The translations under genes and the position numbers were made by a program. Positions 6,468 through 52,492 of a DNA stretch of 64,000 bases are shown here, piece after piece. Position 1 is the first letter of the stretch. Each line of letters starts with the position of its first letter. The notes below the pieces were generated by a model that worked only from the letters and a program-made list of their open reading frames with translations, was not told the DNA's origin and did no database searches. The DNA comes from Candidatus Bathyarchaeota archaeon. GTDB lineage: Archaea; Thermoproteota; Bathyarchaeia; TCS64. The stretch is taken from positions 416,001 through 480,000 of the forward strand of contig CAVYVF010000023.1 of the NCBI GenBank assembly GCA_963771885.1, read 5' to 3'.

Positions 6468-7772
6468 GTGATGACGGAGCCCCACCAGCTAACTGTCGCT
6501 CAGGCCGCCAAGAAGATTAGGCTCGACCAGTTGACTCCTCTTGAACTCGTGGATTCCCTCCTCGCGAGAATCGAGGAGTTGGAGCCCAAACTCGATGCAT
6601 GGGTTACAGTTGACGCTGAAGGCGCCCGAAAGACAGCGAAGACATTGACCGCAGAGGCTAAGAGAGGAAAACTTAGAGGGCCTCTCCACGGTATCCCCGT
6701 CGGCATCAAAGACATCTACGACACAAAGGGGCTCAAGACCACGATGGGGTCCCCCCTCTTCGCCAACAACGTCCCGAATACGGACTCAGCAGTCGTGGCG
6801 CGCCTCAGGGAGGCCGGCGCCATTATACTCGGGAAGACCGAGACCACCGAGTTCGCCTACCTCGACCCAGCCCCAACAAGGAACCCCTGGAACACTGAGC
6901 ACACCCCCGGGGGCTCGAGCAGCGGCTCCGCTGCGGCGGTCTCGGCACAGATGTGCGCCCTCGCCTTTGGCACACAGACCGGAGGCTCGGTCATGCGCCC
7001 CGCCTCCTTTTGCGGCATCACCGCAATCAAGCCAACCCACGACTTGCTGAGCAGGGAGGGGATCTACCCCCAGTCCTGGAGCCTCGACCACGCTGGCTTC
7101 ATGGCGAGGAGCGTCGAGGACCTGAGGCTAACCCTCGGGGCGCTCACAGGCGCCGAGTTCAAAACGAAGGTGCGGAAGCCCAGATTAGGTATCCCCACCA
7201 CGTACTTCAAAGAGGCGGGAACCAAAGAGGTCACGGTGAACTACGAGGACGCCGTGGCGAAGCTCAGGGGCGCTGGAGCCGAGGTAATCGACTTCAAGCT
7301 TCCCGAGTCGTTCAATGTGATCCACTCCGCCCATAGGATAATCATGTTCGCCGAGGCCGCTGCGGTCCACGAGGCGAAGTTCAGGGAGAACCCGCGACTC
7401 TACCGCCCCCATATGCAAGGCGAGGTCTACTCGGGGCTCATTATCCCCTCCTCTACATACCTGCATGCCCAGAGAATACGAGGCAAGTTCAGAAGCGAGC
7501 TAACTGTCTCCATGGAAGATGTAGACGCGCTGCTCATACCCTCGGCGCCAACACCGGCGTTAAAGGGGCTCGCGTCGACAGGGGATGCTGCGTTCAACGC
7601 CCCGTGGAGCCTCGCCGGGTTCCCAACAGTGACAATACCCTCAGGCTTAACCGGAGACTGCCTACCTCTAGGGGTTCAGCTAATAGCGAAGCCGTACGAG
7701 GAGGCGAAACTACTCGGGGACGCAGCCTGGTGCGAATCTGCTCTGTCCTTCAAAGCGGAGCCGCCGCTCTAG
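6468..7772 (+). CDS. Amidase signature family enzyme
   Basis: GPLHGIPVGIKD, GGSSSGSAAAV, GTQTGGSV (Ser-cisSer-Lys triad). Confidence 0.93.
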   Translation: MMTEPHQLTVAQAAKKIRLDQLTPLELVDSLLARIEELEPKLDAWVTVDAEGARKTAKTLTAEAKRGKLRGPLHGIPVGIKDIYDTKGLKTTMGSPLFANNVPNTDSAVVARLREAGAIILGKTETTEFAYLDPAPTRNPWNTEHTPGGSSSGSAAAVSAQMCALAFGTQTGGSVMRPASFCGITAIKPTHDLLSREGIYPQSWSLDHAGFMARSVEDLRLTLGALTGAEFKTKVRKPRLGIPTTYFKEAGTKEVTVNYEDAVAKLRGAGAEVIDFKLPESFNVIHSAHRIIMFAEAAAVHEAKFRENPRLYRPHMQGEVYSGLIIPSSTYLHAQRIRGKFRSELTVSMEDVDALLIPSAPTPALKGLASTGDAAFNAPWSLAGFPTVTIPSGLTGDCLPLGVQLIAKPYEEAKLLGDAAWCESALSFKAEPPL

Positions 7773-8614
7773 CCGACTGTCTTTATCTCTCTGCCGTTCT
7801 CGATGGCGACGAGTTCGACGTACTTCGACAGTCCCGATGTCTCAACCTTTTTCCCTATGACCTCCTCGATCTGGAAGACACCCGCGGGGTTATCCATATA
7901 GATCCTTATTGAGACTGGCTTGTCGTCACCAACTGCGATATCAACCCTCTTTATCGAGATTGCGGAGAGGCTGTGCATGTCCACCTTCCCACCCTTGTAG
8001 GGTATACGGGCGCGCCCCTCCGCCATGTCCGTGCCGTCCGCCACCTTAGCGCAACCCGCCTCGATGCTCAACGCCTTGATCGGGTCCTCGTGTGCATATA
8101 TCGCGTGAAGAGTCTCGCACTTCAACTTCATGACGAGCTCTGGAGACTCTGCATAAACTGTGGAATAGATCCTATCGAGGATCGGGGCTGCTAGGTAACA
8201 GCTATGCATGATGTGTTCAGTTCTGTGGACGCTGTTGCCGATGTCGTGGAGGTAGCTACCCACCATGGCAACTAGTTTCGCCCCCTCAATGTCGCAGATG
8301 CCGTTAGCGACCGTCGTCGGCTCCACCACGCGGGAGATATGGTCTAAGATCTCAAGACTGCTCCCCGCCGCGATACGCGCGTGAACAGGGCCGTGGTCGT
8401 TGTAGTTTAGACGCTTCACCACCATCTCGTTAGACATACGTAGGTGGGCCTGGACCTCAGCATCGCCCTCGAGGATGTCGAAGACACGGCGCACACGCGG
8501 CTCCGCGAGGTGGCTGAATATGAGCCTGTTTGAGACAGTAACCATTTGGCATCCGATGTGAATAGGCGCGTCGAGCCATAAACATCTATCTGGGTCACGC
8601 GACGAGGGGTACAA
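7769..8614 (-). CDS. HD-domain metal-dependent phosphohydrolase
   Basis: YNDHGPVH, YLHDIGN, H..H, KVADGTDM; true start may be downstream of the ORF start. Confidence 0.85.
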   Translation of the reverse strand: MYPSSRDPDRCLWLDAPIHIGCQMVTVSNRLIFSHLAEPRVRRVFDILEGDAEVQAHLRMSNEMVVKRLNYNDHGPVHARIAAGSSLEILDHISRVVEPTTVANGICDIEGAKLVAMVGSYLHDIGNSVHRTEHIMHSCYLAAPILDRIYSTVYAESPELVMKLKCETLHAIYAHEDPIKALSIEAGCAKVADGTDMAEGRARIPYKGGKVDMHSLSAISIKRVDIAVGDDKPVSIRIYMDNPAGVFQIEEVIGKKVETSGLSKYVELVAIENGREIKTVG

Positions 8615-9689: not shown

Positions 9690-10454
9690 CTACTTAATGG
9701 GCAAGTATATCGTGAAGGTCGTTCCCTTTCCCGTCTCGGTTTCGAACGAGATCGACCCGCCCATCGCCTCAAGGTTCCTCTTGGCCGCGGCGAGAGCTAG
9801 ACCATAGCCGCCCCTCTTCTTCGCGCCGAAGGCGATGAAAACCTTGCTGCGGATCGCCTCAGGGATGCCCGAGCCGGTGTCGCTTATGCGAACCAAAATG
9901 TTCCCTCCGTCAACATATGAAGAGACCGTTAAATTACCACCGTTCGGCATAGCCTCAACGGCGTTTTTAATTAGGACAGCGAAGTCCCGCTTAATTTTTC
10001 CTAGGTCAAGCATTGTGTCAGGTATTGCGGGGTCGAGGCTCTTCGAGACGACTATGCCCCCGGGCACCATGACGTCCTCAAAGCTCTTCTCGATGATCTT
10101 GTTGACGTTTCCCTTCATCAACATTATCTCGTGGCCGCGATAGTATTCCCTGAAGGCGTCGAGAATCCCGGTTGCCTGCTTGAGGGCATCTCCAATCTTC
10201 GGGTAGTAAGTCGTGTCCCCGGGCTTTCGCTCCATCAGAAACAGACTATTAGTTATAATTTGGAGGGGTCCCCTTAGGTCGTGGGCGAGTTCCGATGAGA
10301 CGCGGGTCATCTCCGCTTGGAATTCCGCCTTCGCGACCTCACGCACCCGTTCGTCTATCGAGTCCTTTAGCTCAGCGTACCTCTTCTCGCTCTCAGCAAG
10401 GGCACACCGAAGTTCCTCAATCGACTGTGCCTCCGTCATGCCCATTCCCAGCAT
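9690..10454 (-). CDS. Cytoplasmic histidine kinase (HisKA + HATPase_c), no evident sensor domain
   Basis: LAHDLRGPL H-box, KNAVEAM N-box, DTGSGI, GYGLAL, GKGTTF. Confidence 0.9.
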   Translation of the reverse strand: MLGMGMTEAQSIEELRCALAESEKRYAELKDSIDERVREVAKAEFQAEMTRVSSELAHDLRGPLQIITNSLFLMERKPGDTTYYPKIGDALKQATGILDAFREYYRGHEIMLMKGNVNKIIEKSFEDVMVPGGIVVSKSLDPAIPDTMLDLGKIKRDFAVLIKNAVEAMPNGGNLTVSSYVDGGNILVRISDTGSGIPEAIRSKVFIAFGAKKRGGYGLALAAAKRNLEAMGGSISFETETGKGTTFTIYLPIK

Positions 10455-38538: not shown

Positions 38539-39614
38539 ATGAGTCAGGGCAGGAGGAGTGCCATCAGGGTCAGGAGGGTGGACAAGCCCCCTTATACTAT
38601 CGATCCGGAGAAGGTCAGGAGGTACGACCAGAGGAACCTGATTTTCAACCGCGTTGGCAAGGACTCGAGTTGGGGCGGGTATATGAGGAGCGAGGAGGAG
38701 GTGGGGCTCCGCAACATAGCCAAAGGAAAGCCCGGCTACACCCGTGTCGACTACGCCCTCGCTGAGGCAGCTTGGACTGTCCACGAGTGCTTCCAGGAGG
38801 CGTGGAGCTGGGAGAGGATGGCGCGCCCGCTCGGTCCCAGTCTCATGGGGGATAAGTGGTATGGTAAAAAGTACCGCGTCAGGGATCCCGCTGAGATGGC
38901 GTCGAAGGTAAAGAAGGCTGCTAAGCTCTACGGCGCTAGCCTCGTCGGGGTGGCGGCGTATAACCCGCTTTGGATGCAGGTGAATAATAGGTTTGACCTA
39001 TCCCCTCTGGATATGCCCCAAGAGGTGAAGTGGGTCATCGTGGGCGCCATAGAGATGGATGAGTTAGGGATAGCCACGAGCCCCGAGTCACCCGCTGGTG
39101 CGGCGACCGGTACCGGTTACTCACGTATGGCATTTGTAGCTGCGACGCTTGCGGAGTTCATAAGAAATCTCGGCTATACGGCGGTACCCGCGGGGAACAA
39201 CGTGGGGCTCAGCGTGCCGATGGCGATAGATGCAGGGTTGGGGCAGCTTGGGCGCCACGGGCTCCTCATTACCCCCGAGTATGGGCCGAGAGTACGCCTC
39301 TTCAAGGTCTTCACGGACCTGCCACTCGTCACCTGACAAGCCCGATCGACTTCGGCGTAACCCAGTTCTGCAGGAGCTGCAAGCGCTGCGCCGAGGTATG
39401 CGAGGTCGACGCCATCAGCTTCAAGGACGACCCCGATTGGGAGCCGGCGACGAAGAGTAGCAGTCCCGGGGCGCTCAAGTGGTACATGGATGCGGAGAAG
39501 TGCTTCGAGTACTGGTGCGATAACGGGATGGACTGCAGCACCTGCATAAGCGTCTGCCCCTACACAAAGGGTAGGAGCGAGGCGCACGCCAAGGATTTCT
39601 GGGGCTCCCAGTAG
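38539..39614 (+). CDS. Reductive dehalogenase-like (RdhA/QueG superfamily) cobalamin and 2x[4Fe-4S] protein; two single-base insertions at ~39331 and ~39344
   Basis: AGLGQLGRHGLLITPEYGPRVRL, restored TDLPLVPDKPIDFG, FCRSCKRCAEVC, KC..YW...G.DCSTCISVCPY. Confidence 0.85.
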
Positions 39615-39616
39615 CC

Positions 39617-39621
39617 TTATA
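39617..39621 (+). promoter_or_regulatory. TATA box of rnpB
   Basis: TTATA ending 25 nt before the RNase P RNA 5' end. Confidence 0.5.
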
Positions 39622-39645
39622 GACCTCCCTTCTCTCTACCCTCTT

Positions 39646-39950
39646 GGTCGGTGAGCCGGTGGGCGGCTGCCGGGCCCGTGAGGGTCTGAGGAAACTCCAT
39701 CCACCGAGCAGGGCTGCGACGCTGAAAGGCGTGGCGCGAGAGCGTCGGCTCCGGACAGAAACGACACCTCCCCCGGCAAATGCCGTGAGCCCCGGTCAGG
39801 GGTGAGGACGCCGTGGGGCAGGGGTGAGACGGCCGACCCGCAGGGTGAAAGGGCGAATAGGCGCCGGGTCCCTCCTGCAGGGGGCGCGGGTAGCCCGTAT
39901 AGCTGAATGCTGCCTAGAACAGAAGGTGGGTTACGACCGGCACACCGACC
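39646..39950 (+). ncRNA. rnpB: Archaeal RNase P RNA
   Basis: P1 GGTCGGTG...CACCGACC; conserved GAGGAAACTCC, ACAGAAA, GGGTGAGAC, GAACAGAAGGTGGGTTA. Confidence 0.95.
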
Positions 39951-39980
39951 ACATCATACTGAATACCACTAAAACGTGTT
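39933..39980 (+). repeat. Direct repeat copy 1 (3' end of rnpB plus flank), putative attL
   Basis: ACGACCGGCACACCGACCACATCATACTGAATACCACTAAAACGTGTT; 44/48 identical to 42779-42826. Confidence 0.9.
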
Positions 39981-40018
39981 TGGAGAATCAAGCGCGCGAC
40001 AACTTCACGAGTACGCTT

Positions 40019-40582
40019 CTACCCCTTGTTCGGAACTCGCCTCAGCCGCAAAGCAACGAGATAAAAAATGATTGGAGCCACAACCCAAACAAGCTGCGGT
40101 AAAAGCGTGATATCCGCATCGTTGAAACGGAAGATCACCGGGTTCCACCAATGTGGGACAAATACCCAGCCTGAGTTGCCGACCGCTAGGAGTTCCAAGA
40201 CCAGTTCCTGCAGTCCCCCCCAGATCAGTAACACGACTATTTCTGAAATGCGAAAATGGACGAAATGCGGTGGCCGACAGAGCTTCTTAACTAGGAAGTA
40301 GCCCGCGATGAACAGGCCACCATCCCAGAAACAATGCACTACATGGAGGAGTAAGAGGGGATATGGTATCGGCGTCTTAAGCACATACAAAGGAGTGGTA
40401 GAGAAATTCGGGCCGATGAAGTAGAATGGTATCTCCCAAAGTGAACCAATTATGCATCCAGCCCAATACAGCGTATAGCTGTAAGAGTCTATCTTACCCA
40501 TTTGGCGCAGAAACACTATTAGTAACGGTATGAAGAGGGCGATCGTAATATCAATCCAATAGAAAGTTTGGTCTGCCATCAT
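40019..40582 (-). CDS. Hypothetical integral membrane protein (about 5 TM)
   Basis: Hydrophobic helices with intramembrane polar motifs (LWE, HCFWDGG, QE..LE). Confidence 0.75.
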   Translation of the reverse strand: MMADQTFYWIDITIALFIPLLIVFLRQMGKIDSYSYTLYWAGCIIGSLWEIPFYFIGPNFSTTPLYVLKTPIPYPLLLLHVVHCFWDGGLFIAGYFLVKKLCRPPHFVHFRISEIVVLLIWGGLQELVLELLAVGNSGWVFVPHWWNPVIFRFNDADITLLPQLVWVVAPIIFYLVALRLRRVPNKG

Positions 40583-41279
40583 TGACCAATGTTCATATGC
40601 GGATTAAAGTCTGTCATGTTGAACCCGCGCGCGCGTCGTCGACAAGTAGAACTATGATTGAAGAGCCAATCCAAGGTACAAGTTAACCTTCGAATGTGAT
40701 TCATCTGGCTTTATGAGCCTCCGCCTTTCCGTGGAGAGGTGTCTAGTGAATGGATGATTAACAATTATGCGTTATAGCGTGGATCTCGCTTTCCTTTCTT
40801 TCATAACACGTGCTTATATTAGCTCTGAGGGTCTTGCACGTATGCTCGGGTTCGGTTCATTAACTGCGCTTCCCTGAGTTGATTTAGAGTGTAGATAATT
40901 ATGAAGGATAAAACGGAGAAGAAGGGCCGCCGATTACCAACCGAATCGGAGAAACAGGACGACAAACTACGCGATGGGTTGAAGGCGGTTCGTGGGACAA
41001 AGAAGCATTCCCTATCACGGTCTAACTATTAACATGCACACGCCACTCCTATAGGATGAAGAAGACGTGCAGGTTGTAGGCCCGAAGAGTCCGCGATCCT
41101 CTACGACAACTACGCGAGTAACTATGCTAGATTGAGAACGGGTAAGGAGCGGATTTATCCTAGAATATTGCGTTCACCCAGCGTGCTGCGTCGACTCTGA
41201 TCTGCCCCTGGCCTTCACCGTCGCGCCCCTGAAGCATCCCTCAGGTCTATAAGTCTCCGCGAAAAGGATTACTGATTAA

Positions 41280-42611
41280 ATGCGTTCAGCTTGGATTACT
41301 ACCTTGAAGGCATTATGCTGTGCAGAGTTAAACGGTATGAGCGAAGAAGCCGCTATTAGAAAGACCTGCAAGCAGATCGGAATTAAGGACCATATAAATA
41401 TACAAAAAGCTAGCGAATTATTATACGCTGTATCGAAGAGGAGAAATGCACTCGATTATCGTATCAACCAAGCACTATTACCAGGCGACGTCGAAGCACT
41501 TGATGTCGGTGTAAGAAGCTTCCTCCGTATCTACACATACCTAGTACACTATGGTGGCTGTTCTCTCGCGGAGGCCCACAAATTTGTCGAGCACTCAAGA
41601 GAGATCCTTGGTAAAAAGACTCTCAGAGCCGTTGAGGAAGTGATTGACATAATTCCCCATCAGAAGATCCCGTGGGAGAATCTCAGTAGAGTTGAGGCGC
41701 TGGCATTTGAGAATTTTTTACCCCCTTGGTATGTCGAGTACATCAGCGACAACTTCGAGAAGGAGTTAGCGGCTGATCTCATGTCCCCCGTTGAGATCCC
41801 CAAGTATATTCGGATCAACTCTCTTCGTGGGGGTGAGTCAGTGATCCCCAAGTTAAGTGCTGATGGCTACCAACTCGAAGCTGTACCTGGAGTCCCCTAC
41901 GCTTACAAGGTTCAAGGATACTCAGTAGGGTTGACCGACACCGCCTCATACCGAGAAGGTGATTTCATGATGCAGGACAAGGCGAGTATGCTTGTCAGCG
42001 AGGTGGCGGCGCCGATGGCGGGAAATGTTGTGCTGGATGTATGTGCTGCGCCAGGGGCGAAGACAAGTCACCTCGCTCAGATCATGGGTAACCGAGGGAG
42101 AATAGTATCGGTAGATATCAACGTAGCCAGATTGGCGTCCTGGAAAGGGATAATGGAGAGACTTGGTGTTTCGATCGGAGAGGCAGTGATTGGTGACGCG
42201 TCTAAAGCTGATGGGCTCCCTGATGTTATCGCCGACTTGGTTTTGCTGGATCCCCCCTGCTCGGGTACGGGCACCTTCAATAAAATTCCGTCCCTGAAAT
42301 GGAGGGTAACTCACTCTTCAATCCTCGATTTTGCATCTCTCCAGAGTAGACTCTTGGAGAATGTGGCGGCGCATGTGAGGAGCGGAGGGTGGCTTGTTTA
42401 CAGCACATGCAGTGTATCTGTGGAAGAGAATGAGTTTGTTGTCAAGGGTTTTCTTGAGGGGCACCCGGAATTCAAGATTGTGGAGGCAAGTCCGAGATTG
42501 GGTTCACCGGGGTTACTTGGGCTGGTAGAGGCTCAGAGGCTATTCCCTAAAAGGCATGAGTGTGAGGGTTTCTTCATAGCTAAACTACGGAACAGTCCGG
42601 CTTTTGATTAA
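41280..42611 (+). CDS. RsmB/NOL1/NOP2/Sun family RNA m5C methyltransferase with NusB-like N-terminus
   Basis: MQDKAS, LDVCAAPGAKT, DPPCSGTG, YSTCS..EENE, GFFIAKL. Confidence 0.92.
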   Translation: MRSAWITTLKALCCAELNGMSEEAAIRKTCKQIGIKDHINIQKASELLYAVSKRRNALDYRINQALLPGDVEALDVGVRSFLRIYTYLVHYGGCSLAEAHKFVEHSREILGKKTLRAVEEVIDIIPHQKIPWENLSRVEALAFENFLPPWYVEYISDNFEKELAADLMSPVEIPKYIRINSLRGGESVIPKLSADGYQLEAVPGVPYAYKVQGYSVGLTDTASYREGDFMMQDKASMLVSEVAAPMAGNVVLDVCAAPGAKTSHLAQIMGNRGRIVSVDINVARLASWKGIMERLGVSIGEAVIGDASKADGLPDVIADLVLLDPPCSGTGTFNKIPSLKWRVTHSSILDFASLQSRLLENVAAHVRSGGWLVYSTCSVSVEENEFVVKGFLEGHPEFKIVEASPRLGSPGLLGLVEAQRLFPKRHECEGFFIAKLRNSPAFD

Positions 42612-42778
42612 TTTGCGCACACGTTGCCTTGTCCCTAAATTCAGAACAAGCTTATTTTGACAGTTAGAGTCTCGTCATCCCATGGCGCCAACCAGAGGAG
42701 GTCCGATCTATAAGACAGGACGAACACGAGACCCTTGAGACACACGCGCGCCAAGTAACCTACCTCTAGAAGTCGGTA

Positions 42779-42826
42779 ACGACCGGCACACCGACCACCT
42801 CAGACTGAAAGCCACTAAAACGTGTT
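42779..42826 (+). repeat. Direct repeat copy 2, putative attR
   Basis: ACGACCGGCACACCGACCACCTCAGACTGAAAGCCACTAAAACGTGTT. Confidence 0.9.
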
Positions 42827-42873
42827 CGATGGTCTTTTCTGAAAGCTTCTTTATGAAGAACTAAAGTAATCTA

Positions 42874-43623
42874 GTGATCCAGAGCTTGAGTCCTCAGGAT
42901 AAAATATCTGTAATCATGGCCATCCATAACGAGGAGACATATCTCCCAAAATCTCTAACTTGTTTGAAAAATGAGGACATAAAACTAATTGTTATATTAG
43001 ATCGTTGCACCGATAATTCAAAAAAAATTGTTGAAAACCTTTTTCCAGAAGCAATAATCGTGGAAAAAAAAGCAACAAGGTGGGTGAATAGCTACGCTGA
43101 GAATCTTCAAATTGGGTATGAAAAAACCACGGGAAAATACGTAGGGATACTCGACGCTGATATTTGTTGTCCTCCTGACACATTCGCATGTTTACAAAAG
43201 GAGTTGAACTTGCAGACAGCTTCGATTAGTGCAAATATTGTAACGGATAAGACAGCGTCTTTTATGAATCATCTTTATTATTTTTGGGAGAAAACCCACG
43301 ATTGGGGAGTTAAGGAAAGAGAACCTAGAGGCGCTATTCGAGTTATTCTAAGAGAGGCGTTAAATAATGTTGGGGGTTTTAAAGACACTCCTACTCCTGA
43401 TACCCAACTTGATTTAGATCTTAGAAAAGCCGGGTACATGTCAAATTTATCAAGAGATGTAGTATGTCTACACCTTAGGAAATTCTCCTTTAAAAAATCT
43501 ATTCAAACGCAAATTATCTCTGGTAGAACGAGGAGAAAGATGAAGATGCCTTTAATTAAGGTACTCGGCCACTCAATAGTCCGACTTAGACCTTTTGTTT
43601 TTTATGGATATTTAATTTCATAA
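42874..43623 (+). CDS. Glycosyltransferase family 2
   Basis: ISVIMAIHNEE, LDRCTD, LDAD (DxD), VGGF. Confidence 0.9.
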   Translation: MIQSLSPQDKISVIMAIHNEETYLPKSLTCLKNEDIKLIVILDRCTDNSKKIVENLFPEAIIVEKKATRWVNSYAENLQIGYEKTTGKYVGILDADICCPPDTFACLQKELNLQTASISANIVTDKTASFMNHLYYFWEKTHDWGVKEREPRGAIRVILREALNNVGGFKDTPTPDTQLDLDLRKAGYMSNLSRDVVCLHLRKFSFKKSIQTQIISGRTRRKMKMPLIKVLGHSIVRLRPFVFYGYLIS

Positions 43624-43632
43624 TTGAGTTTT

Positions 43633-44790
43633 TTAGAATCGTTTTTTACTCTTCCCTTCCTTAATTTCTTCTAATGTTTTTTCCCACTTTAATGATGTTT
43701 CTTCTACAGAGAATTTTTTTACCCACAATCTACCTTGTTCAGATATTTGTTGATAGTATTTTTCGTCTGTAATTAATTGTTTTACATATTTTGCGAATTC
43801 ATTTGGGCCGTTTATTCTAAAGCCCGTTTCATTATGAATAACAGTTTCTTGTTGACCCCCGCCGTCAGCAACTATCGGAATACAACCTGCAGCTTGTGCT
43901 TCAATTGGGACAATACCAAAATGCTCCTCAGGGTTATAAGATAACAAAAATTTTGAATAGACTAACGTATCAATTATTTCATCGTAGGTAACATTCGTTT
44001 TTAACTCAATTGGATAAGACTTATTTTTTAATTCGTCAACTTTTTTAGTTATTTTTTCTGCATATAAAATACTCTCCGTTTTTTTAGACACTCCGCCTAC
44101 AATTTTTAAACTGCATTTATAATCGTCATATAAATCAAGATAAGCGTCGATAACATGATCAATTCCTTTAAAAGCATCTATTCTTCCAACATAGCATAAC
44201 TGGTTAATTTTTTCTTTTTTAATATTAAATTTGTTTATATCGACTGTTGGATATATCATTTTAAACGAAGATAAATTTACGTAATTACCCCATAATATTT
44301 TACAAATTTTCTCTGTATAATGAGAATTACATATAATGCAATCTAATCTAGATAATTGTTTATAATGCTGATACCAGTATGGTACTCTGTAAACCAGATA
44401 AGGTAAAGTATTTTTTCTTATTTTTAGCTCTGTCGGAAAATGACAATAATGAATTTTAATTATGTTATTAGGAACAGAATAAAAAACTCCTGGTTCAAGA
44501 TCAGCGGAAATTATTACATTAGGGTTAAACTCTTTAATGCATTTATTAATTGATGAACCAGAAGTCAGTAATGTTTTCCAAACAGTACCTTTAATATGAT
44601 TCCCAACCCATGAGGGTAAAAAAATATTTTCGATTCCATGAAATCCTTCAAAACTCTGTTCCTCTGGCCTTTCCCATGAACATAATGCAATTTTATGGTC
44701 AAATTTACTTAGCATCTGACATAGATCGGAAGCAAATTTATTTCCACCGCCTAGAATATTTGGATTTGTCACGGCAATAGCAATTTTCAT
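43633..44790 (-). CDS. Glycosyltransferase family 4 (GT-B)
   Basis: YVGRIDAFKG, EHFGIVPIEAQAAG, ETVIHNETG. Confidence 0.92.
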   Translation of the reverse strand: MKIAIAVTNPNILGGGNKFASDLCQMLSKFDHKIALCSWERPEEQSFEGFHGIENIFLPSWVGNHIKGTVWKTLLTSGSSINKCIKEFNPNVIISADLEPGVFYSVPNNIIKIHYCHFPTELKIRKNTLPYLVYRVPYWYQHYKQLSRLDCIICNSHYTEKICKILWGNYVNLSSFKMIYPTVDINKFNIKKEKINQLCYVGRIDAFKGIDHVIDAYLDLYDDYKCSLKIVGGVSKKTESILYAEKITKKVDELKNKSYPIELKTNVTYDEIIDTLVYSKFLLSYNPEEHFGIVPIEAQAAGCIPIVADGGGQQETVIHNETGFRINGPNEFAKYVKQLITDEKYYQQISEQGRLWVKKFSVEETSLKWEKTLEEIKEGKSKKRF

Positions 44791-44952
44791 TATAATTAAT
44801 TCATACTAAGATCCATTTAAAGATAATATTGAATCATGTAAAGTTAGTAATTCAAATCACCTGTGTATAGTGGCCTATCTTTTATCTCTGTAAATAGTCC
44901 CTATTTTTATAATTTACATGAATTAACCTAAAACGCGTACATTAAAAGGAAT

Positions 44953-46293
44953 TTACCGTTTACGTAACTCGTCGAGGGAGACTATCGGGCAATCATTATA
45001 CTTGAAGCCCCCCGGAGGCATCCATCCCCCGAAGCGCTTCATCGCCTCTCCCAACTGCTTACCCGCAGGGTTCTCGGGCTTAAGCAGGGGATGGGTGAAG
45101 GCTGCCTCATCCCCTGATACCTCCGGGATGACCAGCTCATAGTCCTTAGAGCCCGCGCCGAGCAGGCTGCACGCGTTCGGGCTAATCCACTGACTCATCC
45201 CGTTTATCACAGTGAACTTTTCCTGGCCGGGCTCCATAACGTGCTTCTCTTCCGCGACGGAGCCGTGGATGCCATGTGCCTGAACAGACATATCGAGGGC
45301 CGCCACGTCGATAGCGACCATGTCTCGGGAAGCGAAGACGCCGAGGTTCGGCAGCACCGCCCTATCGGTGCCGGGGACGCAGTCACAGGCGGGGGTCAGA
45401 TCGAGGGCGTAGGTTAGGTATCCGATGCGCTCCTTACCGATGTGGCGCACGTAGCCCGCAGCGGCGTCTGCCATCGCAACGAGGAACCAGTTACTCCAGT
45501 CATCATACTTCTCCCTACCCCAGAGCCCACACCTGAAGAGCGGCCTCTGATGGCCGAAGCACCCTATGCACTTGGAGCCATCATAGGTCGCCCCGTCCTT
45601 CCCGATCTTGAGCGCGCCGGCTGGGCAGAGGTTATTGCAGACCACGTGGTTGGGGCACTCTTCCCCCTTGCACTTCTTGCCGTCGAAGCTCCAGCCGTTC
45701 CAGCCCACCTTCTGGTGGGTGCAGAGGTGCACGTTGAACTTTCCCCTCTTCGAGCTGCAGCCTATGGCGACGTTCTTTATGCTGCCCCCGTAGACGCCGT
45801 TGCCGTGCCCCTTGAAGTGGCTGACAACAATCACCGAGTCCGCGTCGGCGATCCCCCTCGCCAGGTACCCCTCCTTGAGCAGGAGACCATCGGGCAGGTC
45901 GACCCTGACGTCGTCCGTCCCGTACATGCCGTCGCTTATGATGATGGGGCACCCCATCGTCTCCGCCGTGAAGCCGTTGCGCGCTGCGTTCTCGAGGTAA
46001 AAGGACGCCGTGCAGCGGGCTCCATAGAAGTAGTAGGGCGCCGTCGTCGTGTCGGTCACGAAGGGCCTGCCCCCGAGCTCCTTCACCTTGTCGACTATCA
46101 CCCTGATAAGTATTGGGCGAAGGTATCCCGTGTTGAACCACTCACCCATGTGGCACTTTATAGCGACTGAGTCGCCGGGCTTGAAGCAGTCACCGAGGCC
46201 CGCGTGGTCAAACAGCTGCATCGCCTTCGCGGGTATGCTGGAGGACAGCGCCTTGTAGCGGTCATCCATGAAGTAGACTTTGCTCTTCATCAT
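44953..46293 (-). CDS. DUF362 Fe-S domain protein
   Basis: VAIKCHMGE, SHFKGH..YGGSIKN, Cys cluster, CDC, ASRDMVAID. Confidence 0.88.
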   Translation of the reverse strand: MMKSKVYFMDDRYKALSSSIPAKAMQLFDHAGLGDCFKPGDSVAIKCHMGEWFNTGYLRPILIRVIVDKVKELGGRPFVTDTTTAPYYFYGARCTASFYLENAARNGFTAETMGCPIIISDGMYGTDDVRVDLPDGLLLKEGYLARGIADADSVIVVSHFKGHGNGVYGGSIKNVAIGCSSKRGKFNVHLCTHQKVGWNGWSFDGKKCKGEECPNHVVCNNLCPAGALKIGKDGATYDGSKCIGCFGHQRPLFRCGLWGREKYDDWSNWFLVAMADAAAGYVRHIGKERIGYLTYALDLTPACDCVPGTDRAVLPNLGVFASRDMVAIDVAALDMSVQAHGIHGSVAEEKHVMEPGQEKFTVINGMSQWISPNACSLLGAGSKDYELVIPEVSGDEAAFTHPLLKPENPAGKQLGEAMKRFGGWMPPGGFKYNDCPIVSLDELRKR

Positions 46294-46372
46294 CAGCCAC
46301 CAGATAATCGAGTATGAGTTGGCTCACGCTATTTAAAACAGGGCTGCGCTTAGACGGGACGGGTATCAGGCA

Positions 46373-46771
46373 TCAATCCAATGGCTTGGAGGGGGCCTGC
46401 GAGGCACTTCCCTTGTCGAATAGCACGCGCCATCGTCCCGGCGCCTCGAGCCGCCATATCGAGTTGAACCTACCTGTGACGTTCCCCGCCGGGTCACGTA
46501 CAGGACCCGTACTAAGAGCCAGGGTCCCCGAGGCGATGACCTCCACCTGATCCGGTTCCCAAGAGAACGGCGCCTCCTTCGAGGCGAAGTACCGAGACCA
46601 CCAGCTCAGCACAGCGGCTTTCCCCCGCAGCGGCGTCGGCCCGGTGAAGAATATGGCCTCCTCCGAAAGCCAGCTGGCGAAGGCTTCGACGTCACGGTCC
46701 GCCATCGACTTGGCGAACGCCCGCTCCGCGGCGATCACCGCTCTGCGTGCTTCCTCCAGTGCGCTACCCAT
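46373..46771 (-). CDS. NTF2-like/DUF4440 protein
   Basis: AERAFA..MA..D, FSWEP, ALSTGP, FNSIWR...G.WRVLFD.G. Confidence 0.85.
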   Translation of the reverse strand: MGSALEEARRAVIAAERAFAKSMADRDVEAFASWLSEEAIFFTGPTPLRGKAAVLSWWSRYFASKEAPFSWEPDQVEVIASGTLALSTGPVRDPAGNVTGRFNSIWRLEAPGRWRVLFDKGSASQAPSKPLD

Positions 46772-46864
46772 CTCGGTCTGTTGGCATGTTTTGCGTTTGG
46801 TTGCCTCGATTATTTAGCCTTGTCACTCTGTCGTCCACTTATCTTGGTGAGCCTATACGAAGAA

Positions 46865-47075
46865 TCAGCCGCCGCTTATCATGTGGATGACTGATACGGC
46901 TGCGTCTTCAGGGATATGGGTATCGCCGTACCTCTCCCTGGGTACGAGTTCCCCGTTTATAGCTACGTGGACGAGTGGGAACTTGTACCTCAGGCGGGCC
47001 AGCAGCTCGGTAACCGTCTCGTCCTCGACGTAGTCGATCTCATTCTTGTTGACGGTTATCTCCGTGGCCCTTCAC
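46865..47075 (-). CDS. ThiS/MoaD/SAMP-like sulfur carrier (missing from ORF track)
   Basis: ITVNKNEIDYVEDETVTELLARLRYKFPLVHVAINGELVPRERYGDTHIPEDAAVSVIHMISGG-stop; start uncertain (GTG 47075 with an extra G, or ACG 47065 after GGTGA). Confidence 0.85.
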
Positions 47076-47085
47076 CTGCCTGATT

Positions 47086-49411
47086 CTACCACTTCTCCCA
47101 GTACCTTCGGTCGGCTGCGGGTGGCTTCTCGCTTCCGGCGTATTTTCCCCCCCAATTGTTCAGCCCCTTTTCCTCATCCTCGTCTATCTTCGTCTGCAGC
47201 ATCGAGAGCATCCTCTCATCGGTGCAGCCTAGGCTCCTCATCTTCTGCGGCGTCGGCACACCATTCTGCGTCCAGCCGCGTCGGTGGTAGACGGCGTCAG
47301 CGAGCCTCTGGTACTGGTCCTGTCTGTACCCATAGAGCCTACTAATCTTCTCCTCGACTGGCATAGCCTTCATCGCGTCCTTCGTTAAGCCGAGCTTCTC
47401 GATTAGCTGGGAGTCGTAGCGGTCTTTCCTAGACACGTACTCGAGGGTCGTCACTGGACCCATGGACCTGTAGGGTATCCAGTCGTCCTTCCTCCTGCCC
47501 CTACCCAGCCAGACGTTCATGGCGCGTTGCCAGTTGTAAGCTCTCTCGCTCTGATTGATCAGGTCGCTGGGACCCACTTTCATCCCGGTTACAGCAGAGA
47601 AGACTTCGGCGTAGTTCTGCACGTGCTCGGGCACCTTCGCAGGCTCGCTTGTCTTCGCGTTGTCGACTGGCTCGATGTCATTCCACGGCAGCTTGCAGAG
47701 GCCATTGAGACCGAACCACGTCCTCCACATCGGGAAGTAGTGAAGGGCCTCCGCCTTGTCCTTGAAGGTGGGGATCTGGTTGTTGACCATATCCATGAAG
47801 ATGAGCCAAGCCTCGTCGTGCTGCGGTCCTTTAAGCGTCAGCCCGTAGCCGCCTTGCATGGCGAGTGACTCCTTCGTCACGTACTGACTGTACTCGAGGC
47901 CCTTGCTCTCCATGCCGCACTCCTCAATGAGGTAGGGGTCTCCCCAGCCCTTCGTCTTGAGCCAGTCCTTTACGCGGCGTGCGCCTTTTGCGGCGACGCG
48001 TATGAACTCGCCCTCGTCCCCAGCGGCGATGCGGTGGAGTAGTTGGAGCGCCGCCTCGCCGTTGCCGAAGCATAGCTCGAGCCCGTCGCACCGCTCCTTG
48101 TTTAGGATGCCGTACTCGTACATCTCCATGTAGAAGGCGGTGGCCGTCCCCGCTGAGATAGTGTCCAGCCCATAGGTGTCACAGTAGAAGTTGAACTCGA
48201 GAATCCACAGCGGGTCCCAGAGGCTCATGTTTGATCCGGAGCCAAGGGTCTCGTACTCGGGGCCATCCACCGTGACTCGCTGCCCCTTGTATGGCCCCGT
48301 CATGACGGTGTAGTTGTCGACTGTCTTGGCGCACGCCATCGTGCAGCCGTGCCAGCAGCCGTCGGGGATGATCTTTGTGAATAACTTGTAGAGTTCGGGT
48401 GAGTAGAGGTTGGGTGCCTTTGGGAAGCTGCCGAAGCGATAGTTCTCCGTGGGGAGGAGGTCGTAGGCGTCCATGATCTCGACGAGGTGGGCGGTGCCGA
48501 CTGTCCTCATGTTGCACTGGAACTTATCCTGGTCCCTGATCTCCCTGTGTATCTTCACGCCTACCTCCGCAAGGGCATCTGGGTCGGCCGGGTGGTTGCT
48601 GACACCGTCGACCTTCTCGACTTTGACAACGATTGCCTTGACGCCCTTATCGCGCAGGACGGTGCCGAGTCCACCGCGCCCCGCCTGCTTAAGTCTAGGG
48701 GTCTTCCGGCGTATGTCGTAGAAGGAGAAGTTCATGCAGCCCCAGTAACTGTGCTCAGCGCCCTTCCCCGAGGAGACCGTTGACACCTTCTGGCGTGAGA
48801 GGTCTGTGTCCTCGGAGGCAGTACATGTGTGTGAGCTGCTCCGCGAGGAGGTGTGTGTTCGTCTCCTCGAGGGGCGCTGTCTCAATCGACACCGTGCCCT
48901 TCTCGCCGTCGATGACGATGAGTACATCCTCCTTTGACTTGCCCTGTATTTCGAGGGCGTCGAATCCGGCGAATTTTAGGTAAGGTCCGAAGAAGCCGCC
49001 GACGTTGCTGTCGCAGATGATATTCGTCGCTGGGGACACGGTGAGGCAGAGGCTCTTGCCTGAGCCTGGGTACTGCGTGGTACCGCAGAGAGGCCCGGTG
49101 GTTATGACGAGCTCGTTCTCTGGGCTGTCCCAGCGTGTATCTGGTTTAACGGCGTCCCAGAGGAGCTTGAGGCCGAAGCCCCTGCCACCAGTGAAGTACG
49201 CCTTCATCTCCTCGGGGACCCTCTTCTCACTGATCTCGCGAGTCGTGAGGTTGACGTAGAGTGTCCTGTTTGCGTAACCCTTTTCGACCATCCCCTTGGC
49301 ATAACTATACTGTACTAGCTCCCGGTGGGCAGAGCGAATCTTCGCGTAGTCCCATGAGTGCTTCGTGTTCTTTGCGTCGTATTCCTTGACGGGTACCTGT
49401 CCAACTGTCAT
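47086..49411 (-). CDS. aor: Aldehyde:ferredoxin oxidoreductase family (W/Mo-pterin) protein, frameshift at ~48820
   Basis: GGRGFG, DSNVGG.FG..LKFAGFDA, GRGGLGTVL..K, C..CT..C, GPEYET, YGLDTIS, YY/YH..RGW. Confidence 0.9.
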
Positions 49412-49413
49412 CT

Positions 49414-49852
49414 TTAGACCCCCAACTTGTGGTAGACAACTTTCTTTTGGTCGTCCACGCTCTTGTCGGCGAGCTCCAACGCGTTCTCCGGGCAGGCGCG
49501 GACACATGAGCCGCATGATATGCACTTGAACGGCTCTATCCTCGCAGGCGCCTTCCTCATGGCGGCGCTGGGACAGAATGCGACGCATGCCTGGCACCCG
49601 ACGCAGAGCTTCGCGTCCAGCGTGACGACACCCTTCGCGTTGCGCGACAGTGCACCCACGGAGCACATGTCGATGCAGAGGCCGCACTGGTTGCAGACGT
49701 TTGCACTTACGAACCCCCTTCTTCTCTGTTATCCGTATTGCTGACCTTTCCCCACCGCCCCCGGTGTTGAAGTGCACACTGGAGCAAGCTCCCTCACATG
49801 TGAGGCAGCCGGTACACTTCTCGGGGTGGAACTCGACGACCTTGACGCTCAT
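49414..49852 (-). CDS. Poly-[4Fe-4S] ferredoxin-like AOR partner, frameshift near 49710
   Basis: CTGCLTCEGAC, CNQCGLCIDMC, CVGCQACVAFCP, CISCGSCVRACP. Confidence 0.88.
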
Positions 49853-49903
49853 TTCGAAGACTATTGTCGGAACTCCTGAATAAAGTTTAACAACTGGGGC
49901 TTT

Positions 49904-50686
49904 CTAGCCGTAGAAGCCAGCGGTTAGACCACCGTCTACGAAGAGTATGTGGCCGTTGACGTAGCTGGACTCGTCGGAGGCGAGGAAGAGCGCCCCCTTG
50001 GCGATGTCCTCTGGCTGGGCGAAGCGCCCCATGGGTATTTTCTTGATTAGGAAGCTCTTAGTCTCCTCCGGGTTTGGCGCCGCCTCTATGGAGGCCGTCC
50101 ACTGCGGCGTTACTGTCTCACCGGGGACGAGGCCGTTGACCCTGATGCCATACTTACCGTAGTCGAGGCACATGCTACGCGTCAGCTCGCGCAGGCCTCC
50201 CTTAGAGGTACCGTAGGCGTGGTTGCCCATGTAGTTCATGTAGGCGTTGGTCGTGATGGTGTTGATTATCGAGCCGCCGCCCCTCTTGATCATAGCCGGT
50301 ACGACCTCCTTGCTTACGAGGAAGGTGCCGCGGAGGTTGAGGTTGATGAGCCTGTCCCACTCCTGCTCAGAGTCGTTGACGACGGTGTCGTTGTTCTCCT
50401 TCTGCCAGCCGCCGACGTTGTTGTGGAGGACGTCAACGCCGCCGTAGCGGTCGAGTACCTGCGCAACCATAGCCTTGACCTCGGCGTGCTTCGTGACATC
50501 TGCCCTGTAGAATGTGGCTTCTCCATTTTCCTTCTTGATGAGGCGCACAGTCTCTTCGCCGCCCCTCTCGCTGACGTCGTTTACAGCGACCTTAGCACCC
50601 TCCGAGGCGAAGAGTATGGCCACCGCCCTGCCTATTCCCGACCCCGCCCCCGTGATGAGGGCGGTCTTCCCCTGTAATCTGTTCAT
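49904..50686 (-). CDS. SDR family oxidoreductase
   Basis: TGAGSGIG, YGTSK, VDGG; ATG 50686. Confidence 0.92.
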   Translation of the reverse strand: MNRLQGKTALITGAGSGIGRAVAILFASEGAKVAVNDVSERGGEETVRLIKKENGEATFYRADVTKHAEVKAMVAQVLDRYGGVDVLHNNVGGWQKENNDTVVNDSEQEWDRLINLNLRGTFLVSKEVVPAMIKRGGGSIINTITTNAYMNYMGNHAYGTSKGGLRELTRSMCLDYGKYGIRVNGLVPGETVTPQWTASIEAAPNPEETKSFLIKKIPMGRFAQPEDIAKGALFLASDESSYVNGHILFVDGGLTAGFYG

Positions 50687-50792
50687 GACGGTTCTTCTTC
50701 CGCTGCGACGGTTAATATGTTTAAGGAGTCGCTTGCCCCCCGTGGGTCGCACTCATTAAATCACCGACGGCACTCATACACCTCGATCGTCC

Positions 50793-51668
50793 ATGGTGAA
50801 GCCGTCTAGATTCAGCGAAATCGTCCCTGAACCGAGGGTCGAGAAGATCATCGGTGGGTTCCAATTCACCGAGGGGCCACTCTGGGCAGGTGGTAGGCTG
50901 CTCTTCTCCGACATCCCCGCGAGCACAATCTACAGTTGGACCCCCAGCGCCGATCACGCCGAGGTCTACAGGAGGCCTAGCGGGCGTAGCAACGGGCTCA
51001 CCCTCGACGGTAGCGGCCGCCTCATAGCCTGCGAGCACGACAGGCGACTCACCCGAACCGAGCCCGACGGCACCGTTGAGGTGCTCGCCGAGAGCTACAG
51101 GGGAAAGAAACTCAACAGCCCAAACGACGCCGTCGTAGCGAGGAGTGGAGCCATCTACTTCACCGACCCACCCTACGGCCTCGGCGACAAATGTGAGGGG
51201 AAGGAGCTACCCTACCAGGGCGTCTTCAGACTCGGCACCCGAGGGAAGCTCACCCTGCTAGACGATTCTTTCGAGCGCCCAAACGGCCTCGCTTTCAGCC
51301 CCGACGAGTCAAGGCTCTACATCGACGACACGGCGAAGCGCCACATCAGGGTCTTCGACGTGAGAAAAGACGGGTCGATTAGCGGAGGCGAGGTCTTCGC
51401 CGAGCTGAAGGGACCTAAGCGTGGTAACCCCGATGGCATGAAAGTCGACACTCATGGCAACGTCTTCTGCACAGGCTCGGGCGGCGTCTGGGTCATCGCA
51501 CCCTCCGGGGAACCGCTCGGCGTCATCGAGAGCCCCGAGGTCACAACAAACGTTGCGTGGGGCGACGCAGACCTCAAGACCCTATACATAACCGCGCAGA
51601 CGAGTGTATACAGAGTGAGGACGACAACAGGCGGTATTCATTCGCCTAATCTTATGCGTGCATCTTAG
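50793..51668 (+). CDS. SMP-30/gluconolactonase family protein
   Basis: FTEGPLW, SNGL, LNSPND, YFTDPPYG, PNGLAFSPDE, PDGMKVD. Confidence 0.93.
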   Translation: MVKPSRFSEIVPEPRVEKIIGGFQFTEGPLWAGGRLLFSDIPASTIYSWTPSADHAEVYRRPSGRSNGLTLDGSGRLIACEHDRRLTRTEPDGTVEVLAESYRGKKLNSPNDAVVARSGAIYFTDPPYGLGDKCEGKELPYQGVFRLGTRGKLTLLDDSFERPNGLAFSPDESRLYIDDTAKRHIRVFDVRKDGSISGGEVFAELKGPKRGNPDGMKVDTHGNVFCTGSGGVWVIAPSGEPLGVIESPEVTTNVAWGDADLKTLYITAQTSVYRVRTTTGGIHSPNLMRAS

Positions 51669-51721
51669 AAAATTAGTAAAACTCAGGTATCGATCGCTTC
51701 ATTAACCCTCTGCTCTGTTGC

Positions 51722-52492
51722 TCAGATTAGTGTAATGAGCCGCCCGAACCCGACATTTAGCTGCTTGATTCCGCCGTAGGAGTTTATGTAGCCCTTCTCA
51801 ACCCTGAGGCGCGCTCCAACCTTTACAACCTCGAACTGCTTGTCCCAGAGGACCATGACCACCCTACCTGTGGCGTCCTCGAGCGCGGCGTTGGCGACAG
51901 TGAGTTCTCCACCCGTCTTCTTCGACCGTACGGAGCGGGGGTACGACTTCTCCGTCACCTTGCCCTCGACTGTGACATTGCTCTGCCCGTCCCTTAGAGA
52001 GCCGATCGGCGCGATAGCCTCGTCGCCTGTGCGCTTCTCGAACCACCTAGTCTTGATCTTTGGGTCGCCATGCTCCCACCCGATCTGCCTGAAGCCCAAC
52101 GACTCTACGAAGGGCGGCACGCGTGTGTTCCACTCGGGAGTACCTAACGTCCAGATCGTCGCCTCAGGGTACCTCTCTCCGAGGAGTCCCACAACTTCGG
52201 AACCTATTCCCTCTCGTTGGTGATCAGGGTCGACGAAGAGTCTCTCGATGGTCGCGAGTGCCCCGCCTGCGCTTACCATGGCACCGCCGACGACCTCCTC
52301 CCCCTGAAGGACCGTGTAGCAGCCTAGGTACTTCAGTGAGCGCGTATAGAACGCGGGGGAGTCATATCCCTGTGGACCGCCAGGAGTTGGCGCACCATAT
52401 TCATCATCTGATCCGAAAGCCCTCTTCGCGATCTCGGCAAGGCGCTCTGAGTCTATCTCGGATGCCTCGACTAAGGTAACATCTGCGACCAT
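51722..52492 (-). CDS. GNAT acetyltransferase fused to an SSB/RPA-like OB fold
   Basis: LFVDPDHQREGIG and FVESLGF, then IGSLRDGQSNVTVEGKV...LEDATGRV.MVLWD...GYINSYGG..QLNVG. Confidence 0.85.
   Translation of the reverse strand: MVADVTLVEASEIDSERLAEIAKRAFGSDDEYGAPTPGGPQGYDSPAFYTRSLKYLGCYTVLQGEEVVGGAMVSAGGALATIERLFVDPDHQREGIGSEVVGLLGERYPEATIWTLGTPEWNTRVPPFVESLGFRQIGWEHGDPKIKTRWFEKRTGDEAIAPIGSLRDGQSNVTVEGKVTEKSYPRSVRSKKTGGELTVANAALEDATGRVVMVLWDKQFEVVKVGARLRVEKGYINSYGGIKQLNVGFGRLITLI

Follow-up and report, generated by a model that had tools for sequence, protein, structure and literature searches.

A probable decayed tandem array of integrative elements at the 3′ end of the gene for RNase P RNA in a Bathyarchaeia genome

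Integrases typically target the 3′ ends of tRNA and tmRNA genes, regenerate the gene and leave a duplication of its end. Archaeal integrative elements at such sites are treated in a review (PMC8371274) and in a survey of Thaumarchaeota (PMC6563490), whose accessible text gives 39 tRNA, 15 intergenic and 14 protein-gene targets. In bacteria, phage phiEf11 integrates in ffs, the gene for the 4.5S RNA of the signal recognition particle, which is presented as a novel target; the RNA targets named as known in the portion of that paper available are tRNA, tmRNA and csRNA, and rnpB is not in that text (PMC12540744). Here we describe a locus at which the target appears to be rnpB, the gene for RNase P RNA. 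The window, i.e., the whole stretch of DNA analyzed, is 64,000 nt of contig CAVYVF010000023.1 (416,001-480,000, forward strand) from assembly GCA_963771885.1, Candidatus Bathyarchaeota archaeon, a 2.46-Mb metagenome bin that is 92% complete with 6.7% contamination. A first reading of the window alone (the original prediction) had proposed integration at rnpB because the end of this gene and its flank recur as a 48-bp repeat 2.85 kb downstream. From comparison with related genomes, we consider it very probable that the locus is a decayed tandem array at an rnpB attachment site (attB) served by a dedicated clade of integrases.

The repeat involves three features:

39651..39945, + strand: rnpB, archaeal RNase P RNA (Rfam RF00373, 184.9 bits)
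39928..39951, + strand: putative attL core, the last ~24 nt of rnpB (column conservation over rnpB ends and junction copies of relatives)
42774..42797, + strand: putative junction core, a second rnpB tail between element 1 and element 2 (repeat match; inverted repeat)

The copies at 39933-39980 and 42779-42826, spaced by 2846 nt, agree at 44 of 48 positions with a perfect first 20 nt, just as had been claimed, and the likeness extends loosely upstream (60 nt at 88% by BLAST, E 9e-14 in the 2.46-Mb genome). When the 48 nt were scored ungapped on both strands of the genome, keeping the top four places per contig strand, the next-best place among those listed reached 28/48. Because the P1 helix of rnpB, formed by pairing of 39645-39660 with 39936-39951, closes at about 39951, approximately 19 nt of the repeat belong to the gene. 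The direct repeat is built from the 3′ end of its target, and rnpB itself is left intact. This target, an RF00373 gene, is neither tRNA nor tmRNA, and the closest tRNA gene in the window is 14 kb away. As read from the sequence, 12 nt of the second core are bracketed by a 6-bp inverted repeat, a spacing that would suit a tyrosine recombinase site.

An empty site is present in the congener G017, which matches window positions 38564-39952 (87%) and then, after 14 nt, positions 44944-46340 (91%), so that the window has 4991 extra bases (39953-44943). The right limit is set by a single feature:

44944..46293, − strand: right boundary and DUF362 gene (PF04015), found 14 nt behind rnpB in G017; no recognizable attR

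With rnpB and the DUF362 gene next to each other in G017, the insert measures 5.0 kb rather than the 2.85 kb first proposed, and it includes a block of glycosyltransferase genes. Similarly, by-eye comparison places rnpB of G034 against a gene which in G120 comes after a 6.4-kb insert holding an integrase and three further tail copies. The GC content is 0.487 between the copies versus 0.58 in both flanks, in line with the predicted drop; it is 0.323 in the 2.1 kb past the second copy, outside the span originally claimed.

The DNA on either side of the second core, and that behind the first, was assigned as follows:

39952..39985, + strand: putative 5′ stub of a deleted integrase gene, first copy (aligns with core-to-integrase-body DNA in L117, L118, L133 and L065)
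42753..42778, + strand: element-side arm upstream of the junction core (recurs at the rnpB-tail junctions of G008, G012 and G002)
42798..42861, + strand: putative 5′ stub of a deleted integrase gene, second copy (alignment with intact members)

In the intact or near-intact members L117, L118 and L133 and in a decayed copy in G012, the aligned counterpart of the 28 nt past rnpB is the DNA that separates the core from the integrase body. The first stub reads H-T-E-Y-H-stop-N-V-F-G, and in the second copy the integrase likeness continues for about 60 nt. The original prediction was right about the portion of the repeat that lies in rnpB (to the P1 end at ~39951), but the ~28 nt that it took for flank are the start of an integrase gene; a host origin was rejected because they align with integrase-proximal DNA of intact members. 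The arm upstream of the second core is not derived from rnpB, and arm plus core are 82-95% identical over 41-67 nt to junctions of the congeners G008, G012 and G002. Because the 28-nt extension is element DNA, the second copy would be an internal junction of a tandem array and not an outer attR. Judging from these alignments, attL plus one integrase stub makes up copy 1, and in copy 2 an element arm, the core and an element arm form a junction with another stub. This make-up is the mark left by tandem integration and later loss of the two integrase genes. The insert had been described as lacking an integrase and possibly as a remnant, and both points agree with what we found: only 5′ stubs remain within it, and none of the genome-wide searches with PF00589 or the G009 integrase returned an intact gene.

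Reuse of the site was also seen in relatives. We found rnpB in 43 of 61 genomes searched. An 18-nt rnpB-tail pattern, with one mismatch allowed, matched 36 of 401 genomes of the class, 13 of them with two to five copies, and a reversed control pattern matched six of 401, never twice; because the 18-nt pattern fits the window's own family best (26 of 70 genomes), it undercounts elsewhere. On inspection, tandem arrays were apparent in G009, G013, G008, G032, G248, G002, G025 and G146. For two of the 13 multi-copy genomes, G042 and G268, the extra matches lie at contig starts where the rnpB end is repeated, possibly through forks in the assembly, and a match in G030, in coding-like DNA without element arms, was treated as chance. 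Across 47 rnpB ends and 31 other copies, which include a few unrecognized rnpB genes or chance matches, agreement peaks over a core of ~24 nt and drops upstream, and some junctions share up to ~45 nt. The tail copies track each host's own rnpB variant, and the extra copies in relatives enclose different genes.

In G009, a tyrosine recombinase frame (PF00589) with recognizable catalytic motifs lies directly behind rnpB. With this integrase as query, the best 3 of 20 loci abut rnpB and the remaining 17 have a tRNA gene. An alignment of three members retrieved 301 metagenome relatives, with rnpB adjacent in 5 of the best 80 (one duplicating G009), and a six-member profile matched 112 of 401 class genomes at E<=1e-60; among 20 new loci scanned, rnpB was adjacent in seven, a tRNA gene in six and neither in seven. 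We built a tree of 79 rows with segments of at least 200 residues, drawn from 17 of 30 loci of the G009 query, 30 of 80 metagenome loci, 30 profile loci and three extra regions; the fill filter dropped most columns coded by the att site. The 20 rows whose integrase sits at rnpB or an rnpB-tail junction, one of them assigned by eye, all fall on one branch with support of 100/99. Two contig-edge rows and an unlabelled row share this branch, and the 40 tRNA-linked rows all lie outside it. Members come from four families (f1, f11, f27 and f29). The search for integrases next to rnpB, which the original prediction had suggested, therefore yielded tyrosine integrases directly behind the gene in four families and one clade, and its proposal of an integrase-type insertion that rebuilds rnpB is supported by the empty site, the tail copies with different cargo and this clade.

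The closest solved structures are those of archaeal XerA (4a8e, 5hxy), with no SSV1 integrase among 11 PDB matches. We considered a housekeeping XerA/dif system and rejected it: NF040815 gives 85-95 bits against a cut-off of 220, and the genes are patchy, often decayed and bound to rnpB. A single-protein scan of genome contigs returned only the query's own contig. No integrase relative was found in viral contigs, where two loci with the att pattern, neither with rnpB nor with an integrase, were judged to be chance.

Our preferred explanation is that the last ~24 bp of rnpB serve as attB for a family of small integrative elements of Bathyarchaeia. A tyrosine integrase would recombine this site with an attP that has an rnpB tail (the 3′ strand of P1) of its own. 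This would restore the essential gene, with the tail that was displaced left as a marker of the far end. Because the integrase gene would begin in or next to attP, its body would come to lie directly behind rnpB upon insertion, and in some members at least, the promoter and first codons would stay behind at the far end, a splitting of the SSV-like kind. Once rebuilt, the site could be used again, which would give rise to tandem arrays. In the window, two elements would have been stacked in the order rnpB-attL, element 1, junction, element 2, after which both integrase genes would have been deleted to stubs of 30-60 bp and the outer attR lost, leaving only cargo. The repeat, the empty site, the variable cargo, the integrase clade with its position and the homology of the stubs are observed; we infer the recombination itself, the crossover position, the order of arrival and the splitting of the gene.

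Several observations weigh against this explanation. The genome of the window, 92% complete, has no PF00589 match, the G009 integrase query gave zero matches there at E<=10, and tblastn returned only a 30-residue C-terminal scrap on contig C2 (E 0.36). Neither a free circle nor an excision joint was seen in viral contigs or in four public runs, nor an empty-site joint in these runs, so that the circular attP junction suggested as a check by the original prediction did not appear. There is no outer attR or core copy at 44943. The 14-nt spacer of G017 starts like the element arm of G014, and so the G017 site may be a scar and not a virgin site. An insertion sequence (IS) end lies 10 nt from the junction arm, indicating that transposition also shaped the cargo. 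Finally, because the sequences for the tree were collected with rnpB-linked queries and its root was not inferred, it speaks for one target-specific lineage among those sampled and not for the age of that lineage.

Three other accounts of the window were weighed. An assembly artefact could have made the second copy, given a metagenome bin with 6.7% contamination and an insert that is spanned as a whole by no listed contig of the four public runs (positions 40005-40505 are uncovered in three of the four, which by itself proves nothing), but this is extremely improbable. Four of the 48 positions separate the two copies, whose flanks are also distinct, and the same layout is found again in many relatives. 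Moreover, most of the insert is covered by contigs of the four runs. At the second copy, the joint 42799>42832 has at least 79 letters on either side in a contig of run X1, and the right boundary is crossed by contigs of both X2 and X5. With this support from independent runs for the cargo, for the passage through copy 2 and for the right boundary, misassembly, which had been named beforehand as one outcome that would overturn the original prediction, is unlikely. A local duplication of the rnpB end and its flank by illegitimate or IS-driven recombination, with no site-specific integrase, would fit the IS left end that adjoins the second copy, the absence of the RsmB gene from its home locus 60 kb away, and the failure to find an integrase in the genome. 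However, the extension is integrase DNA, unlike what follows rnpB in the empty-site relative G017, three congeners share the upstream arm although it does not derive from rnpB, and a dedicated integrase clade exists; this account is already contradicted and we hold it very unlikely.

In the remaining account, which leaves target and enzyme unchanged, integrase-less cassettes that keep their att arms are moved in trans by the integrase of another element, and the array would still operate as a platform for gene capture instead of being a graveyard. Many junction-bounded blocks indeed have no full integrase (G248 has four junctions, G032 three and G120 three), the shared identity of the two window stubs stops at one and the same base and both share an in-frame TAA ahead of N-V-F, which would fit the copying of a single end that was already disabled, and the four cargo open reading frames (ORFs) are open. 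Yet the stubs of relatives are graded up to near-complete pseudogenes (G013, G008, G028, G012, G248), which looks like decay, and the same TAA occurs in a decayed G009 copy. In addition, without an outer attR element 2 cannot excise, and no helper integrase was found in the genome with PF00589 or the G009 query. We therefore regard movement in trans as credible but on balance unlikely, and decay of two elements inserted in tandem as the better explanation of the window.

A separate question is whether the integrase gene is split by its own insertion. The frame test covered 14 of 15 rnpB-adjacent members: all 14 have a frame that stays open back through the core, and no ATG, GTG or TTG occurs between the core and the first conserved helix in 11 of them. 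The core, however, has no stop in any frame, and thus openness alone is weak evidence. The core is read in all three frames (8/4/2), and for this reason we dropped a fixed frame as proof of splitting. In the complete elements L119 (4.1 kb) and G363 (4.9 kb), ATG leaders of 53 and 61 codons, respectively, lie at the far end in frame with the body, and shorter in-frame leaders are present in G157 (16 codons) and at both G009 junctions (9 codons). Nevertheless, of 12 junctions, five have the leader in frame, five have it out of frame and two have none, which is near chance and also counts against splitting; the window junction has no leader. At sister elements with other targets, in-frame leaders were seen by eye in 4 of 5.

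In an ordinary unsplit gene of the pNOB8/lambda type, the apparent leaders would be chance and the gene would start just past attP or at an ATG/GTG in the rnpB tail, with the rest of our explanation still compatible. The in-frame fraction of leaders would be expected under this view, as would the GTG of L117 and L118 at the first residue of the conserved helix, the ATG before it in L199, and the ATG or GTG that immediately precedes the core, within rnpB, in five members of the window's family read in frame 0; the XerA structures as nearest solved relatives also favor it. On the other hand, the codon before the core is GCG in other families, most members have no standard start between core and first helix, and the long leaders of L119 and G363 and those of the sister elements are in frame. 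Furthermore, in the available text on suicidal integrases, att sites are read in different frames and frameshifted hybrids form after tandem insertion (PMC7253208), which would account for the mismatches in leader frame. On this evidence an unsplit gene is possible, if doubtful, and splitting of the integrase by its own insertion seems a reasonable expectation for the clade. SSV-like working is suggested for some members only and falls short of assigning the clade to the SSV type. A bolder scenario, which we consider improbable, is that a self-splitting branch left tRNA genes early in Bathyarchaeia and specialized class-wide on rnpB, and that a trans-fed capture array took up RsmB. If so, the integrases of the window's family would have their start codon (ATG or GTG) in the rnpB tail, and a ribozyme gene would supply promoter read-through and a start codon to an inserted integrase.

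The insert carries the following cargo:

40019..40582, − strand: 187-amino-acid hydrophobic ORF, element 1 cargo (no Pfam or NCBIfam match)
40634..41023, no strand assigned: short pieces of decayed dispersed repeats, common to low-GC places of C2 (~33.3, 169 and 171 kb) and relatives
41280..42611, + strand: RsmB/NOL1/NOP2-family RNA m5C methyltransferase gene, 443 amino acids (PF01189, E 3e-51)
42622..42743, + strand: truncated left end of an IS; in relatives a DDE transposase follows
42874..43623, + strand: GT2 glycosyltransferase gene, element 2 cargo, GC 0.37 (PF00535)
43633..44790, − strand: GT4 glycosyltransferase gene, element 2 cargo, GC 0.30 (PF00534, PF13439)

The RsmB/NOP2 gene scores below every NCBIfam cut-off. 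In G002, G013, G008 and G016 it adjoins the gene that here is at C23:395.7-397.2 kb, and in G013 and G016 the stretch lies between homologues of C23:397229 and 397177, which are nearly adjacent in the genome of the window. The window gene is 68-71% identical to those of congeners versus 77-85% for the neighboring genes, and it was therefore either moved or re-acquired from a relative. It is absent from the home locus (G000:C23:397177-397229; G000 is the genome of the window) and occurs only in the rnpB array. The glycosyltransferase block has counterparts of 72-75% identity in G012, G007 and G010, and a full copy of the IS is found in L249 (PF01609, E 1e-18). No Rfam family reaches its cut-off inside the insert. 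A low-GC region at G000:C2:170901-171192 (L003 ~9900-10200) carries the element 1 pieces of window 40634-40748 and 42567-42700 in a deleted version, without an att core. Four cargo ORFs of L119 have no Pfam match.

Copies of the rnpB tail also occur far from rnpB. A third copy in the genome of the window, 31 nt and perfect, lies at G000:C23:140669-140699. The copy with its arm (140633-140699; L002 ~634-700) begins ~6 nt past tRNA-Leu(GAG), 315 kb from rnpB; the arm resembles junctions of G002 and G248, and copy and arm are also present in G003:C113 (L106 ~6545-6610). In G146, three junction copies are about 185 kb from its own rnpB. These distant copies may reflect rearrangement or a secondary insertion. 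In G048, two full RF00373 matches (C6:92530-92850 and 97926-98204; L048) are 5.4 kb apart. The same ORF, cut by the contig end, starts ~55 nt past rnpB in L107 (1-257, G007) and L112 (6506-6675, G003); it has no Pfam match and by eye could be the N-terminal domain of another recombinase. As for recombinases in the genome of the window itself, the PF00589 search did not find even a XerA-like protein in the 92%-complete bin.

Beside the rnpB clade, the tree holds a branch of four integrases (support 100/100; sister position 94/80) at L232 ~8350-8480, L233, L234 and L236 (G353, G216, G162 and G157). Their target is a conserved hairpin-like non-coding motif with no Rfam match in three scanned loci, possibly an undescribed RNA gene, and their att repeats, with in-frame leaders, lie 5.7-8.9 kb away. 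Related integrases are found at the 3′ end of a zinc-ribbon gene (L237 ~1600-1720 and L238 ~8100-8240; G091 and G297), which by its appearance we take to resemble TFS/RNA polymerase subunit M.

In the neighborhood of the insert, the genes at 44953-51700 have a host-like GC content and nonetheless vary among relatives, so that the hot spot may hold older, ameliorated layers; a gene near 51720-52000 recurs downstream of the array in several relatives. Upstream of rnpB, a reductive-dehalogenase-like gene (38539-39615; PF13486, E 7e-07) ends at 39336, and related coding-like sequence continues past 39336 in another frame, making a frameshift possible.

We found no report of rnpB as an integration target in the literature searched, which leaves most subscription journals outside its coverage, and papers that pair rnpB with island or prophage terms, set aside here, use rnpB merely as a phylogenetic marker. 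Neither rnpB nor RNase P is mentioned in the main texts of PMC6563490, PMC8371274 and PMC13626063, nor RNase P in that of PMC11705971; the data archive of PMC13626063 gave 0 matches over 4.0 million characters. In the accessible text of PMC13626063, 13.5% of RNA targets are non-coding RNAs that are not named, and rnpB may be hidden among them. Island-finder pipelines and archaeal provirus surveys anchor on tRNA/tmRNA genes (an example, in its accessible text, is PMC11705971), and they are thus likely to miss rnpB elements or to file them as intergenic. A class-wide hot spot behind rnpB adds another default location for mobilome searches in Bathyarchaeia, and it partly accounts for the breaks of several assemblies exactly at the 3′ end of rnpB. 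The clade offers a clean test case for target change in tyrosine integrases and for self-splitting outside the SSV family, and the window copy is a decayed two-element example with an empty-site control. With a single essential target gene and a short conserved core, the system is a candidate tool for integration if the archaea become tractable.

The mechanism proposed here is of a known kind, and it is the rnpB target and the integrase clade that appear unreported in the searchable literature. As in tRNA/tmRNA islands, the block of identity begins within the gene and reaches its 3′ end, the gene is rebuilt, the integrase lies at attL in relatives, the site is reused in tandem, and elements decay to integrase-less islets; unlike in those islands, the target is rnpB (the 3′ strand of P1 and the conserved stretch preceding it). 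The elements resemble the SSV type (SSV1, pTN3, pT26-2), as described in the available text of PMC7253208 and PMC8371274, in that the att core would be translated in the integrase frame, the body lies at one end and a putative leader at the other (L119, G363, G157 and G009), and related enzymes differ in att frame with frameshifted hybrids at tandem junctions. They differ in that rnpB takes the place of a tRNA gene as target, the leaders are short (9-61 codons) with poor conservation, tandem arrays at rnpB are common, and splitting is supported in some members only; the closest solved relatives are XerA proteins, with no SSV1 integrase among the 11 PDB matches. Like phiEf11 at ffs, these elements would use an essential structural RNA gene other than tRNA as attB, whereas phiEf11 is a bacterial prophage with a separate integrase gene and another RNA gene as its target.

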